From the NCBI GenBank assembly GCA_020632555.1, contig JACKFI010000005.1, positions 19,793 through 83,792 on the forward strand: a DNA stretch of 64,000 nucleotides, in the 5' to 3' direction. Both the position numbers and the translations under genes were made by a program. Below the pieces are notes generated by a model, which worked only from the letters and a program-made list of their open reading frames with translations, was not told where the DNA came from and searched no databases. Source of the DNA: Candidatus Omnitrophota bacterium (GTDB lineage: Bacteria; Omnitrophota; Gorgyraeia; Zapsychrales; JANLHA01). Of the stretch, positions 3,658-36,639 are shown one piece after another (positions within the stretch are counted from its first letter, which is position 1; every line of letters begins with the position of its first letter).

Positions 3658-4230
3658 CTATTGTTTAACCTTCCATTCATATAAGCCAGTCGAATTATTT
3701 AAGACCTCAATCGGCGTGCCAGCAGGAGCATCAGACTGCAAACGCTGCGCGTATAACTGCTGAACGGCTTCAACAGAAGTGCCATTCTTTTGAGCCACCG
3801 CCTGATAAATCATCATCCGGTCACGATTCTCAGCATCAACCAAATCTTTCGAAGAAATATCTGCCGTCCGGATCTCCAGCAAACCCAATTTATTTTCACC
3901 AATACCGCCCTTAACCTGCAAAGCCACCAATTGCGTATAGCGATCTTTGCGTCGGAAAGCTGCTGCTTCAATATCAGGGCTTAAACCTTGCGCCGCATAA
4001 GCTTCCGCCACAAAAATATTCAAGAAATTGCGAGACCCTTGCCCTTTTGTATTTTCTGATGACCCGGTGACAATGCTTTCAATATCATCAATGTCATTCT
4101 TAATATGCTGATAAATATCCAAGCGCATGGAGATATCTACCTTAATCGGATCCTTCGGGGCCTGCACACTCACCCGAGCACATCCTAAAATTAACACCAA
4201 TGCCACAATAATTGTTAGTCCTGTTTTCAT
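3658..4230 (-). CDS. YnbE-like lipoprotein fused to a YdbL-like (DUF1318) domain
   Basis: Lipobox LILGC followed by 'ARVSVQAPKDPIKVDISMRLDIYQHI', which resembles YnbE (GCxP.v.v.aPkePI). The C-terminal half, 'GGIGENKLGLLEIR...AENRDRMMIYQAVAQKNGTSVEAVQQLYAQRL...YEWKVK', matches the YdbL/DUF1318 pattern. Confidence 0.65.
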   Translation of the reverse strand: MKTGLTIIVALVLILGCARVSVQAPKDPIKVDISMRLDIYQHIKNDIDDIESIVTGSSENTKGQGSRNFLNIFVAEAYAAQGLSPDIEAAAFRRKDRYTQLVALQVKGGIGENKLGLLEIRTADISSKDLVDAENRDRMMIYQAVAQKNGTSVEAVQQLYAQRLQSDAPAGTPIEVLNNSTGLYEWKVKQ

Positions 4231-6777: not shown

Positions 6778-6862
6778 CTTTGGCAACTGGCTGCCCTTTG
6801 CTGTGCATGAGGGCCCTATAGCTTTGTGTCCCATCCTTACGAATGGTTTACCTTTTTCCGAC
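6778..6862 (-). promoter_or_regulatory. c-di-GMP-I (GEMM-I)-like riboswitch aptamer, copy 1
   Basis: The minus strand reads AAAAAGGTAAACCATTCGTAAGGATGGGACACAAAGCTATAGGGCCCTCATGCACAGCAAAGGGCAGCCAGTTGCC. It has a GNRA-capped stem, the CAAAGC junction and a 3' GGCA..TGCC helix as in the Vc2 aptamer. It is about 80 nt upstream of the 5431..6699 start. Confidence 0.65.
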
Positions 6863-8356: not shown

Positions 8357-8437
8357 TTTCGGCAACTGGCTGCCCCTGCTGTGCATACGGGCCCTATAGC
8401 TTTGTGTCCCACCCTTACGAATGGTTTACCTTTTCTC
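8357..8437 (-). promoter_or_regulatory. c-di-GMP-I (GEMM-I)-like riboswitch aptamer, copy 2
   Basis: The minus strand reads GAAAAGGTAAACCATTCGTAAGGGTGGGACACAAAGCTATAGGGCCCGTATGCACAGCAGGGGCAGCCAGTTGCCGAAAAG. It is nearly identical to copy 1, while the flanking DNA differs. Confidence 0.7.
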
Positions 8438-8536
8438 TATGTTTATTATTTCATTACTCTGAGAGTGTAAAACACCAATGATGAATCGGCAAGAGCAAAG
8501 CTGAAGAATTATTTAAATTAGCAGCAAGAAAAAAAC

Positions 8537-28031: not shown

Positions 28032-28274
28032 TCAAATCAAATGCCTTTTTAGGAAAGCAAAGCCTGAGCCTTGTTTTAAATAACGTTCGAAGGCATGAGC
28101 TTTCTTTTGATCGTTAAAAGCCACATAGGTCTCTACCCGCCAAGGCAGATATCGTTGCGAATAAGCTACCTGCCCCGCATTGTGTCTTTTCAGCCGCTTT
28201 TCTATATCGGCCGTTATCCCAATATAAATTTTACCCGGGTTATTTTCACTAACCAGAATATAGACAAAGTGCAT
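28032..28274 (-). CDS. GIY-YIG nuclease-family protein (UPF0213-like, 80 aa)
   Basis: 'FVYILVSENNPGKIYIGITADIEKRLKRHN' is the GIY...YIG motif followed by the R..H.N helix. Confidence 0.8.
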   Translation of the reverse strand: MHFVYILVSENNPGKIYIGITADIEKRLKRHNAGQVAYSQRYLPWRVETYVAFNDQKKAHAFERYLKQGSGFAFLKRHLI

Positions 28275-28320: not shown

Positions 28321-28569
28321 CTGCTGCGCTCAAATGTTTATATGCTTGAGCTTCGCAGAGACACTCTTCTTCGATAATAGATCATCAGCTCGCTTCTTCG
28401 AAGCTCGAACACGAAAGTATTCGAGCGAAGAAAAAAGGAAGAAAACGACCCATCCTGCTTCGCTCAAGAATTCTGATGCTTGAGCTTCGCAGAGACACTC
28501 TTCTTCGATAATAGATCAACAGCTCGCTTCTTCGAAGCTCGAACACGAAAGTATTTGAGCGAAGAAGAG
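28321..28569. repeat. 134-bp tandem direct repeat (about 1.9 copies) abutting the tmRNA 3' end
   Basis: 28342-28431 is repeated at 28476-28565 with a few substitutions. Each unit contains a 14-bp interrupted hairpin (CTTCTTCGCTCGAA...TTCGAGCTTCGAAGAAG on the minus strand). Confidence 0.85.
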
Positions 28570-28961
28570 TGGAGGTGGGGGGAATCGAACCCCCGTCCTT
28601 AAATCACATCATATAAGCTTCTACATGCATAGTTTGTCTTTGAGTCTCATTCTATCGCAGCCGACAAACAGGCCTAAATAGAACCAGTCTTGAAAAGGTT
28701 CGCTATCGACGTCAAGACGCCATCAACAGCTAGCCCGCTAATGACCTCTATACCGACCCGCGGACGCTACCGGTAAAAGGGCTTAGTGGATTTTATCCGA
28801 CTAAGACTGGCTGCTCTGCACCGTTAGCAATAGCTTCGGCTTGAGCGATCAACGCGTCATTGTTTTCTGCGTTTATTTTTGTGCTAGATTTTTTACGAGG
28901 CCAACTAGCGTCCTCGGCATGCCACCTATACTAGTCATCCAAGTCGAGACCAGTCACCCCC
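28570..28961 (-). ncRNA. ssrA: tmRNA (transfer-messenger RNA)
   Basis: The minus-strand 5' end GGGGGTGACTGGTCTCGACTTGG...GCATGCCGAGG...GGCCTCGTAAAAAA resembles the E. coli tmRNA 5' region. The 3' end GGACGGGGGTTCGATTCCCCCCACCTCCA forms the T-arm and a 7-bp acceptor stem with G3:U70. smpB lies 1.3 kb upstream on the same strand. Confidence 0.85.
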
Positions 28962-30767: not shown

Positions 30768-31739
30768 TTAAAATTGTCCTGTCATTTTCATATAAATCGT
30801 CAAAAAAATGGGAATGGTCACAATGCTAGCCAAATGCGTAATAAACACCCCTTCGCTAACAAAATCCTCTTCAATATTGTAATACCGTTTAATCAAAGAC
30901 AAGGTCACTGCGCTGGGAACCGCCGCCTCGAGAATAATCAAAAATCCAATGAGCCCAGAAACCTTAAACGCCACAATAGCTCCCAAAGCCAATAATGGAA
31001 AAATGATCATCTTGGTTACAATAACCATCGCCATTGGCCCGATGGCAATATGCCGCAAACGAAGACTGGCCAATCCACCGCCAACGGTAAACATCGCAAA
31101 GGTCAACGCACAATTACCCAACATTTCGACTGGTTTGATCACCACTTGCGGCAAATAATGCTGTGCGCCAAATCCAATCAAGGTCATCGTCAAAACTGTT
31201 GTCACCAAAGGCGGATTAAAAATCTTTTTCCAATCCATCTTGATTTTCTGTCCTTGCAGCAATAACCCTACCCCCAGAGACCAAATCAATAAATTCGCGC
31301 CAATGATATAGAGAACAATGTAAATATAAAGTGTATGCGCCGGTTGTCCAGTAAAAAGGGCGGCGACTACCACCAGCGGAATATTGCCACAATTTTGAAA
31401 ACCAACCAAGGCCAAAAATTCATTCTTGCGATGGCCTTTAAAACCAAAACCAATCACATACGCCAAAGCCAGAGCAGCTAAAGCCATACCGGCATACAAA
31501 AGCGGCAATTTCCACCAGTAGGGAAACTCCTGAAAACTAAAATGCTGCATCAATTGCGTAAACGCAAAGCATGGCAATAAAATATTGACCAAAACCGCGG
31601 TCAACTGATCTAAGCCGCGATTGTCTAACATTTTGCCTTTGACCGCGAAATACCCGCAAGCCCCTAAGAGCAGAACCTGCATCGTCGCAGAAAACGTAAT
31701 TTGCAAGGTTTCGAAAAACATTGTGCAGGCATTATACAT
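30768..31739 (-). CDS. AEC-family (auxin efflux carrier-like) transporter
   Basis: About 10 TM helices. The N-terminus, 'LLLGACGYFAVKGKMLDNRGLDQLTAVLVNILLPCFAF', is typical of the Mem_trans/AEC family. Confidence 0.75.
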   Translation of the reverse strand: MYNACTMFFETLQITFSATMQVLLLGACGYFAVKGKMLDNRGLDQLTAVLVNILLPCFAFTQLMQHFSFQEFPYWWKLPLLYAGMALAALALAYVIGFGFKGHRKNEFLALVGFQNCGNIPLVVVAALFTGQPAHTLYIYIVLYIIGANLLIWSLGVGLLLQGQKIKMDWKKIFNPPLVTTVLTMTLIGFGAQHYLPQVVIKPVEMLGNCALTFAMFTVGGGLASLRLRHIAIGPMAMVIVTKMIIFPLLALGAIVAFKVSGLIGFLIILEAAVPSAVTLSLIKRYYNIEEDFVSEGVFITHLASIVTIPIFLTIYMKMTGQF

Positions 31740-31754
31740 GAAGACAATTAAAAA

Positions 31755-31783
31755 TTGACAGTAAAAATCAATACGATTATACT
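31755..31783 (+). promoter_or_regulatory. near-consensus sigma70-type promoter (TTGACA-17 nt-TATACT) facing the repeat region and tRNA-Leu
   Basis: TTGACA at 31755-31760, an exact 17-nt spacer and TATACT at 31778-31783. It is divergent from the AEC transporter gene. Confidence 0.5.
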
Positions 31784-31826
31784 CTCTCTGTTGTCATGAC
31801 GAATAAATGGAGCGAAATAATCCTTA

Positions 31827-31900
31827 GAGGGGTTAGGGGTTGGAGGTTAGGGGTTAAGGGTTAGGGGTTAAGGGTTAGGGATTAGTGGTTAGGGGTTGGT
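31827..31900 (+). repeat. G-rich telomere-like heptamer array (GGGGTTA / GGGTTAA variants, about 10 units)
   Basis: GAGGGGTTAGGGGTTGGAGGTTAGGGGTTAAGGGTTAGGGGTTAAGGGTTAGGGATTAGTGGTTAGGGGTTGG. A related block lies at 62648-62672. Confidence 0.9.
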
Positions 31901-31904
31901 GAAT

Positions 31905-32153
31905 GTCATTGCGAGGAGCGTCAGCGACGAAGCAATCCTTAAAGTATGCAACAAAGTGGCTAGAGATTAGTTGTTAGTTGTGTCTTTGCGAACGAAGTGA
32001 GTCCTTGCTGGACGAGGAGCTGTTCAAATATTCAAGGCGAAGCGTCAACCTTGATGGTTGACGCGAAAGTGCAGAAATTAAAAAACTTCTGCCACAGTGA
32101 AGCAATCCATTAAGATTGCTTCGTCAGTCGCTTCGCTCCTTTCTCGCAATGAC
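31905..32153. repeat. imperfect ~35-40-bp inverted repeat pair enclosing a hairpin-rich ~170-bp segment
   Basis: GTCATTGCGAGGAGCGTCAGCGACGAAGCAATCC (31905-31938) is matched by GATTGCTTCGTCAGTCGCTTCGCTCCTTTCTCGCAATGAC (about 32114-32153). Internal hairpins are GCGTCAACC/GGTTGACGC, GCAGAA/TTCTGC and GAAGCAATC/GATTGCTTC. Confidence 0.8.
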
Positions 32154-32158
32154 ACGGT

Positions 32159-32421
32159 GTTTCGCCGAAGTGCGGCCTCCTTCAAAGTACTGAGGCGAAA
32201 CTTATACATTTTGTTCATTCAGGTTTTGCCGAAGTGCGGCCTCCTTCAAAGTACTGAGGCGAAACTTATACATTTTGTTCATTCAGGTTTTGCCGAAGTG
32301 CGGCCTCCTTCAAAGTACTGCGGCAAAACTCGTACATTTTTGTTCATCTAGGTTTTGCCGAAGTGCGGCCTCCTTCAAAGTACTGCGGCAAAACTCGTAC
32401 ATTTTTGTTCATCTAGGTTTT
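32159..32421 (+). repeat. four tandem 64-65-bp repeats, each starting with the 5' flank and first 9 nt of tRNA-Leu
   Basis: GCCGAAGTG recurs at 32164, 32228, 32292 and 32357, and then again as the tRNA 5' end at 32422. Each unit folds as GTTTYGCC(G)-A-AGTGC...GTACT-G-(C)GGCRAAAC. Confidence 0.9.
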
Positions 32422-32503
32422 GCCGAAGTGGTGAAATTGGTATACACGCTGCGTTCAGGGCGCAGTTCTGCAAGGATTGGGGGTTCGAATCCCCCCTTCG
32501 GCA
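32422..32503 (+). tRNA. tRNA-Leu (anticodon CAG)
   Basis: Manual cloverleaf. Acceptor stem GCCGAAG/CTTCGGC, 3-bp D stem, anticodon stem CTGCG/CGCAG with loop TTCAGGG, 13-nt variable arm, T arm GGGGG-TTCGAAT-CCCCC and discriminator A. CCA is not encoded. Confidence 0.85.
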
Positions 32504-32518
32504 TTAAATTTCCTTAAC

Positions 32519-32870
32519 CATTCAAACTATTCCTTTAGCAAAATTTAATGCCAGTACTGCTTTCCTTCTATTCTCTTCCAGAGAAAGCATGTACGGCACT
32601 GATAACCAATAGAACAATTCAAACAATACCCAAAACTTTAATGCCAGCACTGCTTTCCTTTTATTCCCTTCCAGGAAAAGCATGTACGGCACTGATAACC
32701 AATAGAACAATTCAAACAATACCCAAAACTTTAATGCCAGTACTGCTTTCCTTCTATTCTCTTACAGAGAAAGCACGTACGGCACTGATAACCAATAGAA
32801 CAATTCAAACAATACCCAAAACTTTAATGCCAGTACTGCTTTCTAACAAATTAAGCCTTCTCGAAAGAAA
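32519..32870 (+). repeat. 93-bp tandem repeat array (about 3.2 units) with a conserved hairpin, directly 3' of tRNA-Leu
   Basis: AATGCCAGTACTGC recurs at 32547, 32640, 32733 and 32826, an exact 93-bp period. Each unit has the stem GCCAGTACTGCTTTC / GAAAGCATGTACGGC. A related element lies at 38219-38383. Confidence 0.9.
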
Positions 32871-32936
32871 TCAAGAAGGATCCTGTTTGACAGTTTTCTA
32901 GGCTTATGCTATTTATTAACAAAAGGAGATTATTCT

Positions 32937-33149
32937 ATGACCGCAAAAAATATTGAACGCAGTGCTGTAAAACTTCCCCCCATCAAACGTCTCCGCTTGA
33001 TCGAAATCTTGATCGCCAGTCTGGATAAGCCTGATGCCGCTATCGAACGTACCTGGGCCGCAGAATCCGACAAACGCCTTACCGCCTATAAAAAAGGCTC
33101 GCTTAAAGCCGTTTCCCTTGACAGCGTAAAAAGACGCTTTATCAAATGA
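32937..33149 (+). CDS. putative addiction-module antitoxin (TIGR02574-like component)
   Basis: 'LPPIKRLRLIEILIASLDKPDAAIERTWAAESDKRLTAYKKG' matches the 'addiction module component' family that pairs with ParE/RelE toxins. Its stop overlaps the toxin ATG (ATGA). Confidence 0.7.
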   Translation: MTAKNIERSAVKLPPIKRLRLIEILIASLDKPDAAIERTWAAESDKRLTAYKKGSLKAVSLDSVKRRFIK

Positions 33150-35306: not shown

Positions 35307-36639
35307 GGTGATGTACACTCAATTGTGTAAATTCGTTTACTAGCGGTAAAAAGGGCGTATCCTTCCAAAAAAGAGACCAATCTTTAAATGGAAAGGAATA
35401 CGCCCATGAAAACCGCTAACTTCACAGGCAATTTTAGACACAGATGGCAATTTGCCAAGCATTTTTTTGCCGAAACAAACACCGCCAATTTTTGGCTAGA
35501 TATAAACAAATTTGCTAAATCCATGACAAAAGAATTTTTTGAAATCTCCCTCGAGGAAGAAATGATCCAATATCAGCAAAGAAAATCTTACCAAAGAACG
35601 CCAAACCGCCTCGATTACCGTAACGGCCATTACCTGCGTAACATGGATACGGCTTTCGGTCCAATTGAAAATATCCAAGTCCCTCGCTGCCGTTCAGGAC
35701 TTTTTAAGCCTTCAATGTTTAACAAATATCAACGTCGTCAAGACTCGGTCAATCAATCGATCATCAACTGCTTTTTGCTGGGCGTTTCGACCCGCAATGT
35801 TAAAGATGTCTTAAAACCTTTACTGGGCATCAACATCTCGGCTTCAACCGTCTCCAACGTAACAAAAGCTGTTGATAAATTAGTCAAAGAATTCCACAAC
35901 CGCCCACTACTTGATGAATATCAATTTATCTTTATCGACGGCATTAATATCTCTGTGCGCTATGGTTCTAAATCCATCAAAAAAACTGTTCTAGCCGCCT
36001 ACGGTATTACGCTTTTCGGCCAGCGCGAGCTTATAGACTTTCGTATCGTCAAATCAGAATCCAAAGACGCCTGCGAATCTTTTTTAAATTATCTTTTTAA
36101 TCGCGGGCTCAAAGGTGAAAATCTCAAGCTGATAATTACCGACGGTGGCAAAGGGCTCATCAGTGCTTTGGCTATCGTTTACCCAGAAGTCAAACATCAG
36201 CGTTGTTGGTTCCACAAACTTCAAAACATTACCAAACTTCTTAAAAAGAAAGATCAAAATGAAGTCGTCAAAGCTTTGCAAAAAATTTACAACGCACAAT
36301 CTAAAGCCATCGCCCTTAAACGCTTCAAGGATTTTAAGTTTTTATGGAATAAAAAATACCCTGATGTCATCAAGTCTCTTGAAAAAGATTTAGAAGAACT
36401 TCTTAATTTTTTAACGATTCCTATCAAAAAAGAATTTCGTAGCTTTATTCGCAAGCGCATTCGCACCACAAATGTTATCGAACGTTCGTTCCGTGAAGTC
36501 AGGCGCCGGACTCGGCCGATGTCCTGTTTTAACAACAATGACAGCCTTCAACGCATCATTTATGCTGTCTTTTATCGTTTAAATACAAACTGGAAGGCCA
36601 AACCCTTAACCCAATTTACACAATTTATTTGACATTACC
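35307..36639 (+). mobile_element. IS256-family insertion sequence
   Basis: The terminal inverted repeats are GGTGATGTACACTCAATTGTGTAAATT (left) and, as the complement of the right end, GGTAATGTCAAATAAATTGTGTAAATT. 9-bp target duplication CACGAAGAA at 35298-35306 and 36640-36648. Confidence 0.8.
35388..36632 (+). CDS. IS256-family (Mutator-type) transposase
   Basis: 'RNGHYLRNMDTAFGPIENIQVPRCR', 'FIDGINISVR', 'IITDGGKGLISAL' and 'QRCWFHKLQNI' are canonical Transposase_mut motifs. Confidence 0.9.
   Translation: MERNTPMKTANFTGNFRHRWQFAKHFFAETNTANFWLDINKFAKSMTKEFFEISLEEEMIQYQQRKSYQRTPNRLDYRNGHYLRNMDTAFGPIENIQVPRCRSGLFKPSMFNKYQRRQDSVNQSIINCFLLGVSTRNVKDVLKPLLGINISASTVSNVTKAVDKLVKEFHNRPLLDEYQFIFIDGINISVRYGSKSIKKTVLAAYGITLFGQRELIDFRIVKSESKDACESFLNYLFNRGLKGENLKLIITDGGKGLISALAIVYPEVKHQRCWFHKLQNITKLLKKKDQNEVVKALQKIYNAQSKAIALKRFKDFKFLWNKKYPDVIKSLEKDLEELLNFLTIPIKKEFRSFIRKRIRTTNVIERSFREVRRRTRPMSCFNNNDSLQRIIYAVFYRLNTNWKAKPLTQFTQFI

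Follow-up and report, generated by a model that had tools for sequence, protein, structure and literature searches.

Why would a tRNA gene be preceded by a row of copies of its own 5′ end? The question is raised by a tRNA-Leu(CAG) locus of a Candidatus Omnitrophota bacterium, which lies within the 64,000-nucleotide stretch of DNA analyzed here (the window). At positions 32159–32416, four head-to-tail units of 64, 64, 65, and 65 bp are followed directly on their 3′ side by the tRNA, and all four start with a copy of its 5-nt leader and first 9–10 nt. We propose that these units are constrained, self-masking hairpins in the leader at the 5′ end of pre-tRNA-Leu(CAG), derived from a partial duplication of the gene that was amplified by slippage. 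This reading is built on comparative sequence analysis, and we give it about an even chance of being correct.

The repeat itself is unambiguous. The sequence GCCGAAGTG occurs five times, with starts at 32164, 32228, 32292, 32357, and 32422—i.e. in steps of 64, 64, 65, and 65 bp—and the fifth copy is position 1 of the tRNA. Tandem Repeats Finder (TRF) reports a period of 64 bp with 4.2 copies, 96% matches, and a score of 439, and a 26-mer specific to the unit, for which the chance expectation is 0.00, is found 4 times in the window. These searches bear out the original prediction, in which four 64–65-bp units were said to copy the 5′ flank and acceptor 5′ strand of the tRNA. The units follow an AABB pattern: unit 3 equals unit 4, and unit 2 is 1 nt apart from unit 1. 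Unit 1 has TGTTTCGCC, not GGTTTTGCC, and the exact 15-mer has four occurrences and one 2-mismatch variant (unit 1). Within each unit, the copied strand (the 5′ or decoy arm) is followed by a loop, which in the window contains CCUCCUU, then by a complementary 3′ arm and a U-rich spacer of 20–22 nt that closes the unit before the next unit or the tRNA (Table 1). Only one tRNA-Leu(CAG) is called at the locus, at 32421/2–32503/4, and ARAGORN and Rfam agree on it. None of the Logan short-read contigs of the same species reaches the 64-bp units, so the count of four copies rests on the assembly; these contigs end in the repeat-rich leader upstream of the units or in a 93-bp array downstream of the tRNA.

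Table 1. Coordinates of features at the tRNA-Leu(CAG) locus, in positions of the window.
Feature	Coordinates	Strand	Composition	Score or evidence
Predicted tRNA-Leu(CAG) promoter	31755–31783	+	TTGACA-17-TATACT after A/T-rich stretch	11/12 consensus match
Predicted distal pre-tRNA leader, non-conserved	31784–32158	+	(AGGGGTT)x10 array and MITE-like (miniature inverted-repeat transposable element-like) insert	
Unit 1, 64 bp	32159–32222	+	5′ decoy arm 32159–32173, loop 32174–32186, 3′ arm 32187–32201, spacer 32202–32222	-18.8 kcal/mol; covariance model 88.7 bits
Unit 2, 64 bp	32223–32286	+	5′ arm 32223–32237, loop 32238–32250, 3′ arm 32251–32265, spacer 32266–32286	-16.7 kcal/mol; covariance model 87.3 bits
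Unit 3, 65 bp	32287–32351	+	5′ arm 32287–32301, loop 32302–32314, 3′ arm 32315–32329, spacer 32330–32351	-18.2 kcal/mol; covariance model 81.8 bits
Unit 4, 65 bp	32352–32416	+	5′ arm 32352–32366, loop 32367–32379, 3′ arm 32380–32394, spacer 32395–32416	
Genuine proximal leader, template of every unit start	32417–32421	+	GTTTT	Sequence
tRNA-Leu(CAG)	32422–32503	+	No encoded CCA	Rfam RF00005 54.9 bits; ARAGORN 32421–32504

To place the array in an evolutionary context, we retrieved syntenic loci via the protein of a flanking transporter gene and built a neighbor-joining tree on that transporter. Genomes with hairpin units form a single clade, and each of its five assembled, species-level lineages has the unit at the same site, in 1, 1, 1, 2 (plus 1 degenerate), and 4 copies. 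Specifically, the window holds 4 hairpin units between promoter and tRNA; L004 (transporter 79% identical to that of the window) holds 2 intact units and 1 degenerate; L003 (80–81%) and L007 (80%) hold 1 each; and L009/L010 (79%) hold 1 unit, the decoy arm of which lacks the leader part. No units are found in L006 (74%), L013 (72%), or L015 (59%), while L011/L012 (72%) have a degenerate 5′-end copy (GCTCCGAAGTGGTG) directly after the promoter, and L014 (66%) has a truncated tRNA copy. In L016, L017, and L020, synteny is gone and there is no tRNA at the locus. These comparisons supply the check on related genomes that had been proposed with the original prediction: five lineages of the clade carry the unit, and the pairing is kept, with some compensatory change. 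In the degenerate third unit of L004 (7577–7634, − strand; covariance model 23.3 bits, E = 0.017), spacer and hairpin are retained, and the arms, GGGGCACG/CGTGCCCC, have ceased to look like the tRNA 5′ end. The L011 leader folds into a strong hairpin (z = -6.2) that spans only positions 8–13 of its degenerate 5′ copy, and is only suggestive as a second case of masking.

Searches for the unit elsewhere were negative. The 26-mer has no further copy in the 64-kb window, a covariance model reveals none there or at 13 other loci, scans of JGI metagenome contigs and of viral contigs for the hairpin pattern gave 0 hits, and Rfam, at both gathering and permissive thresholds (E ≤ 10), matches no family to the units and calls the tRNA alone. 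Several familiar identities could also be set aside. A CRISPR (clustered regularly interspaced short palindromic repeats) array is ruled out because the entire 64–65-bp unit repeats, the "spacer" included, and a dispersed repeat or MITE is ruled out because these searches found no copies at unrelated loci. The spacer occurs only in the array, and was rejected as a general motif; as a boxA-like antitermination site it was likewise dropped, since UGUUCUUU in L004 resembles the boxA consensus by eye but L003 and L007 do not keep the motif. An intrinsic terminator or attenuator does not fit, as the U-rich stretch begins ~9 nt past the stem. Small + strand open reading frames (ORFs) over the array (84, 80, and 50 aa) are probably repeat artefacts, since they would be impossible in single-unit relatives. 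In tandem small RNA arrays of the NsiR1 type, each repeat has its own promoter and terminator; neither was detected per unit here.

Folded singly, a unit forms a 15-position hairpin in which 5 bp close a 13-nt loop and an internal mismatch separates them from 8–9 outer bp. The energies range from -16.7 to -20.1 kcal/mol (z about -2.7 vs. shuffles), in agreement with the hairpin and 13-nt loop first proposed for every unit. The pair said to change stepwise across the units of the window does so, from C:G through U·G to U:A, at columns 5–39 of the alignment. In the within-unit register, standard pairs occupy 88.3% of alignment cells, compared with 26–51% in slid controls. Between lineages, the outermost pair swaps from G:C to A:U, and the genuine leader and the final base of the 3′ arms change in concert (G with C in the window, A with T in the relatives). 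The + strand RNA hairpin is 3.5–9.3 kcal/mol stabler than its − strand version in every lineage and contains invariant G·U pairs; as these favor the + strand, they point to an RNA-level structure on the strand of the tRNA. The CGGCA echo of the tRNA 3′ end, also part of the original prediction, follows automatically from complementarity to GCCG, and is not independent evidence.

Sequence constraint on the unit is uneven. Between lineages, identity reaches 88% in the 5′ arm, 86% in the 3′ arm, and 72% in the spacer, compared with 49% in the loop and 33–52% at four-fold degenerate sites of the adjacent gene. The loop is constant in length at 13 nt while its sequence drifts—for example, the CCUCC motif is missing from L003 and L009. 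Nothing in the tRNA corresponds to the 3′ arm or the spacer, and gene conversion from the tRNA therefore cannot explain their conservation. This pattern bears directly on one alternative, namely that the array is neutral or slightly deleterious junk: a tRNA pseudogene fragment amplified by slippage, with its conservation due to gene conversion and recent ancestry. The unstable copy number, the sister lineages without the element, the near-identity of units within a genome, the L014 copy (so close to its own tRNA that conversion or recency is suggested), and the two more tandem arrays in the same intergenic region would all fit such a history. However, gene conversion cannot keep a 3′ arm or a spacer at these identities against 33–52% for loop and four-fold sites, the helix is preserved by compensatory changes, and the element is kept in 5 of 5 clade lineages while the rest of the leader turns over heavily. 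We consider junk quite unlikely. The unit is a real conserved feature and not a chance artefact, and what we find is a predicted RNA secondary structure conserved on the strand of the tRNA, as is characteristic of a pre-tRNA leader element.

Whether the units lie within a transcript depends on where transcription starts. The core of the promoter-like site upstream of the array (Table 1) varies little if at all among the 11 related loci, and in the unit-free L006 and L013 its -10 element sits 11 and 22 nt 5′ of tRNA +1, with nothing between. Because a conserved promoter abuts the tRNA in unit-free relatives, we infer that 31755–31783 acts as the tRNA-Leu(CAG) promoter. In the window, this promoter is ~640 bp upstream of the tRNA, and a scan of 31500–33100 found no terminator-like site on the + strand between the two. 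Transcription probably runs from the promoter through the array to the tRNA. A promoter that is upstream of the units here and adjoins the tRNA in sister lineages would place the units in a long pre-tRNA leader, and argues that they are not promoters themselves.

The opposite view, that a sigma-70 promoter of the form TTCAAA-18-TACATT in each unit multiplies initiation of tRNA transcription, was contained in the original prediction and fares poorly. Each half matches its hexamer at 4 of 6 positions, at a plausible distance from the tRNA. The total of 8/12 positions is nevertheless below the scan threshold, and no promoter is called in the array. The hexamers are not conserved: L004 lacks the -35 and has a shifted -10, and the -10 of L003 lacks its final T. 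Furthermore, the far better upstream promoter, conserved in 11 loci, is the sole one in unit-free relatives. Amplified promoters are, in our judgment, barely credible.

Upstream of the units, the leader is a hot spot for insertions. Insertions (MITE-like elements and the heptamer array) gather there and never occur between the last unit and the tRNA, and the leaders of L003, L004, L007, and L009 contain no sequence alignable to the distal leader of the window. The (AGGGGTT)x10 heptamer array, at 31828–31897 on the transcribed strand of the leader, is G-rich and telomere-like, with G-quadruplex potential. The MITE-like insert (31904–32154) has perfect 12-nt inverted repeats at its ends, TGTCATTGCGAG and CTCGCAATGACA, and contains a CATTGCGAGGAGCG..GACGAAG motif; a similar element is present in the L007 leader (about 3770–3900, − strand), and the strain variant L002 departs from the window sequence inside this insert. 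Three of the 4 tandem arrays of the 64-kb window fall in this one 1.1-kb intergenic region.

How could copies of a tRNA 5′ end arise? A clue comes from L014, where tRNA positions -5 to +42 are duplicated and the copy agrees with the L014 tRNA at 46 of 47 positions. The copy is followed by the same spacer (CATTTTGTTCATTTAG), the intact tRNA starts exactly 64 nt after the copy, and the copy aligns to the hairpin-type units without gaps. A truncated copy with the same 64-nt period and spacer points to partial duplication of the 5′ part of the gene, and the element would therefore belong to a family of such duplications. Partial tRNA-gene duplications and pseudo-tRNA fragments produced by tandem duplication or slipped-strand mispairing are well known in organelle genomes. 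The truncated copy beside an intact gene in L014, the head-to-tail repeats, and the variable copy number are all alike; the difference is that the fragment described here is not decaying, with the 3′ arm and spacer apparently under purifying selection and the hairpin maintained. The original prediction had compared the units with internally deleted tRNAs. The unit interior matches the tRNA no better than shuffles do (68% and 35% score at least as high on the two strands), and the sole tRNA-derived relative, L014, is a 3′-truncated copy, so this description does not hold.

The number of copies is best explained by slippage between 15-nt direct repeats. Repeats of this length placed 64 nt apart make slippage or unequal recombination easy, which would account for the range of 0 to 4 copies and for the near-identical neighbors. 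The units are head-to-tail, near-identical within a genome, and different in count among relatives, as in slippage repeats of the variable number tandem repeat kind. Because copy number changes so easily through the direct repeats, the tandem array itself is probably incidental, and what requires an explanation is the unit. The "remnants of repeated recombination" first listed among the possible explanations stay a candidate in this form, as they are close to a partial duplication followed by slippage.

A different kind of recombination would be a site-specific scar: an element targeting the 5′ part of a tRNA integrated, regenerated that part, and was later lost, leaving repeats of its attachment (att) core. 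Integrase att sites of genomic islands duplicate the 3′ part of a tRNA and flank a kilobase-scale, integrase-bearing element. Direct repeats of a tRNA segment are a hallmark of att sites and are shared by the array, the 46-nt repeat of L014 has the size of an att core, and an integrase gene lies near the tmRNA (transfer-messenger RNA) in L007. By contrast with genuine att sites, the duplicated portion here is the 5′ and not the 3′ part, just 49 nt lie between repeats (18 nt in L014), no integrase or element remnant adjoins the array, and the scan of viral contigs was empty. A scar would also leave unexplained an identical 64-nt period in two lineages and a conserved hairpin. We judge such an origin highly improbable; that the repeats are not an integrase-type 3′ duplication had been recognized from the start, and the repeated 5′ portion and lack of an adjacent integrase ORF confirm it.

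The hairpin is not the only structure available to the units. An inverted-repeat search finds the 3′ arm equally complementary to its own 5′ arm and to the 5′ arm of the next unit, and for unit 4 this "next" partner is the genuine tRNA leader with the acceptor 5′ strand (-16.8 kcal/mol). The alternative register pairs 87.5% of cells compared with 88.3% within units, and its energies (-16.8 to -19.0 kcal/mol) match those of the within-unit register (-16.7 to -18.8 kcal/mol). For the whole array, the equilibrium fold reaches -123.3 kcal/mol, compared with -108.5 kcal/mol for a modular fold of four hairpins and a cloverleaf, and it captures the 5′ strand of the tRNA. The "covarying hairpin" of the original prediction thus stands in part: pairing and compensation are seen, but the covariation is thin, with one or two independent events, and supports the within-unit and the 3′-arm-to-tRNA pairing equally, so that the within-unit register is not singled out. 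As the two score equally, covariation was dropped as an arbiter between them.

These competing pairings could be more than a hazard. The array may be a cis-acting RNA switch, in which the 3′ arm of the last unit serves as an "anti-leader" that blocks RNase P while upstream decoy arms compete for it. Temperature, transcription speed, or a factor would then set the output of mature tRNA-Leu(CAG), and more units would provide more registers. Such an array would parallel in nature the synthetic RNase P riboswitch with its sequestor hairpin. It would draw on the equal ability of a 3′ arm to pair within its own unit, with the following 5′ arm, or with the tRNA, and on the capture of the tRNA 5′ strand in the equilibrium fold. 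In L009, the 3′ arm can form 14 uninterrupted pairs with the genuine tRNA 5′ end, compared with 10 with the decoy, and between lineages the tRNA leader, decoy leader, and 3′ arm have all changed together. A sequestered leader is known to block RNase P (PMC7897497, PMC9433436), and a mirror image of this complementarity is seen at the 3′ end of the tRNA, where L003 has two compensatory changes. On the other hand, there is no evident ligand-binding or sensor element and the loop evolves at a neutral rate, 0 to 4 copies among close relatives are odd for a tuned device, and the order of transcription favors self-contained hairpins. We regard a switch, the chief alternative to our reading, as rather unlikely.

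The complementarity at the tRNA 3′ end comes from a second tandem array directly 3′ of the tRNA (32539–32843, together with 32500–32552; 93 bp x 3.3). Each 93-bp unit contains a 15-bp imperfect hairpin (GCCAGTACTGCTTTC / GAAAGCATGTACGGC). The first unit opens with AAATTTAATGCC, a perfect complement of the tRNA 3′ end and trailer, GGCATTAAATTT (0.6% of shuffles do equally well), and later units have AACTTTAATGCC, which is 92% complementary to the same segment. L003 has a single 93-bp-type copy with two compensatory changes (GGCACTTAATTT / AAATTAAGTGCC), and L004, L007, and L009 have no such copy. The idea that the 64-bp units and the 93-bp units descend from one ancestor was rejected: they share only the 8-mer AGTACTGC, and 12% of shuffles do as well. 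The 93-bp array may be a mirror image of the upstream arrangement of decoy and anti-decoy. If so, the units and this 3′ segment could together make up a natural cis-regulatory device, with anti-end segments that compete with the acceptor stem and decoys that titrate them. Such a two-ended device, which we find unlikely, would gate RNase P and possibly 3′-end processing, and hence the supply of mature tRNA-Leu(CAG).

The fold also speaks to what RNase P would make of the units. They had been suggested as decoy or processing substrates for this enzyme, but their mock cleavage site lies buried within a continuous helix. Pairing near the cleavage site, whether by leader stem-loops or by pairing with the distal leader, is an RNase P anti-determinant (PMC9433436), and a substrate role is accordingly disfavored. 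Sequestration of the leader likewise blocks the enzyme in a synthetic RNase P riboswitch, in which a sequestor hairpin is combined with a theophylline aptamer (PMC7897497).

The buried site also counts against the possibility that RNase E or P cuts small RNAs from the leader and that these act in trans, as sponges, as anti-Shine-Dalgarno regulators, or as decoys for factors binding the tRNA-Leu acceptor end. The concept of regulatory RNAs from tRNA-precursor spacers is established, as functional RNAs derive from tRNA external transcribed spacers (ETS), e.g. the E. coli 3′ETS-leuZ sponge, and act via a conserved single-stranded seed. The units resemble them as conserved non-tRNA parts of a tRNA primary transcript; they are stable hairpins downstream of a strong promoter, with CCUCCUU in the loop of the window's units. 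Unlike in 3′ETS-leuZ, however, the exposed loop is the least conserved part: it would be the likely seed, yet its identity is 49% and CCUCC is absent in two lineages. Together with the lack of any terminator or defined 3′ end found, and of a match to an Rfam family, this makes trans-acting small RNAs improbable in our view.

We therefore return to self-masking hairpins, which would arise and act as follows. The 5′ portion of the tRNA gene would first have been partly duplicated. In one Omnitrophota clade, the copy would have turned into a decoy that mimics leader and acceptor 5′ strand, with a complementary segment 13 nt after it, and the two would close into a stable hairpin. The number of copies would then shift as the 15-nt direct repeats mispaired by strand slippage or recombined unequally. 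One strong promoter ~640 bp upstream presumably transcribes the precursor, the four units forming part of its 5′ leader, and each unit would fold on itself once transcribed, if folding follows the order of transcription. This self-folding would prevent the decoy strand from pairing with the 3′ acceptor strand of the tRNA, would keep the genuine leader and 5′ strand out of reach of the complementary arm, and would leave the spacer beside the tRNA single-stranded for RNase P. Selection would hold both arms and their match to the tRNA.

The logic of this scheme is one of mutual dependence. An unmasked 3′ arm could sequester the leader and cleavage site and so inhibit RNase P, which would make each arm necessary for the other. 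This mutual need would produce conserved arms, a free loop, and arms that track the tRNA leader. The capture of the tRNA 5′ strand in the equilibrium fold suggests, in turn, that masking and the order of folding matter. A masking or insulating role is what these observations suggest to us, and slippage is the probable mechanism of amplification.

Several points weigh against this reading. The read-through of a roughly 640-nt leader, on which it depends, is something we infer from the sequence. The tRNA works without the element in the unit-free sisters L006, L013, and L015, so any benefit would be conditional or compensatory. Masking accounts for the conservation of the arms and not for that of the spacer, which is common even to L014, a locus without the hairpin (z = +0.6). 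In addition, the 34-nt interiors of the L014 copy and the hairpin units have only 3 invariant columns, and L014 is not a clean tandem duplication. In L009, the leader part is gone from the decoy but the 3′ arm continues to match the genuine leader, a combination that fits a switch better. Gene conversion between decoy arm and tRNA could mimic selection on the 5′ arm, and the sample amounts to five lineages with one or two independent compensatory events.

The flanking genes, on the minus strand, are the tmRNA, smpB, and the AEC-family transporter used above, the nearest relatives of which are from Candidatus Omnitrophota metagenome-assembled genomes (74–81% amino-acid identity). The tmRNA tag peptides (28567–28961, − strand, in the window; also L003–L016) are unusually long, at 23–29 residues; they share ENDALIA near the start and end in ...PVLVG or ...PALV, not the common ...LAA. 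A small GIY-YIG-like ORF (28032–28274, − strand), assigned as a guess from sequence, adjoins the tmRNA. Directly after the 93-bp array is an Unstab_antitox antitoxin gene (32937–33149, + strand; Pfam match) with its own TTGACA-like site, and 35388–36632 (+ strand) is a transposase-like ORF of 414 aa, the family of which is likewise a guess. Elsewhere in the window, two riboswitch aptamers of the c-di-GMP-I (cyclic di-GMP) type, at 6778–6861 and 8358–8440 (both − strand), lie within 1.6 kb, and one of them fits the GGC variant model.

Kinds of feature already known include leaders with structure in pre-tRNAs, tRNA genes duplicated in part, and repeats formed by slippage. Bacterial pre-tRNA leaders with structure (PMC9433436) are alike in having a leader stem-loop on the strand of the tRNA, here one that could pair with positions -5 to +9. 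The differences are that an arm of the present, predicted hairpin exactly copies the tRNA 5′ end, giving a decoy and an anti-decoy, and that the hairpin is conserved throughout a clade and amplified in tandem. The synthetic RNase P riboswitch (PMC7897497) is similar in that competing helices mask or expose a single-stranded proximal leader; that system was engineered with a theophylline aptamer, whereas no sensor is evident here and switching is hypothetical. In the literature we searched, we found no leader hairpin that is made from an exact copy of a tRNA 5′ end, is under clade-wide selection, and can be expanded by slippage.

For annotation, it follows that the array is not to be called promoters, tRNA pseudogenes, or att sites, and its repeats break short-read assemblies at an Omnitrophota tRNA locus. 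If the two-ended device were real, the leader-sequestering "RNase P riboswitch" would have its first analogue in nature. If masking or switching is true, the locus would make it possible to study in a natural setting how the structure of a leader and the order of co-transcriptional folding govern access of RNase P. It would also represent a case in which the hazard created by a duplication was neutralized by a compensating partner that then became indispensable.

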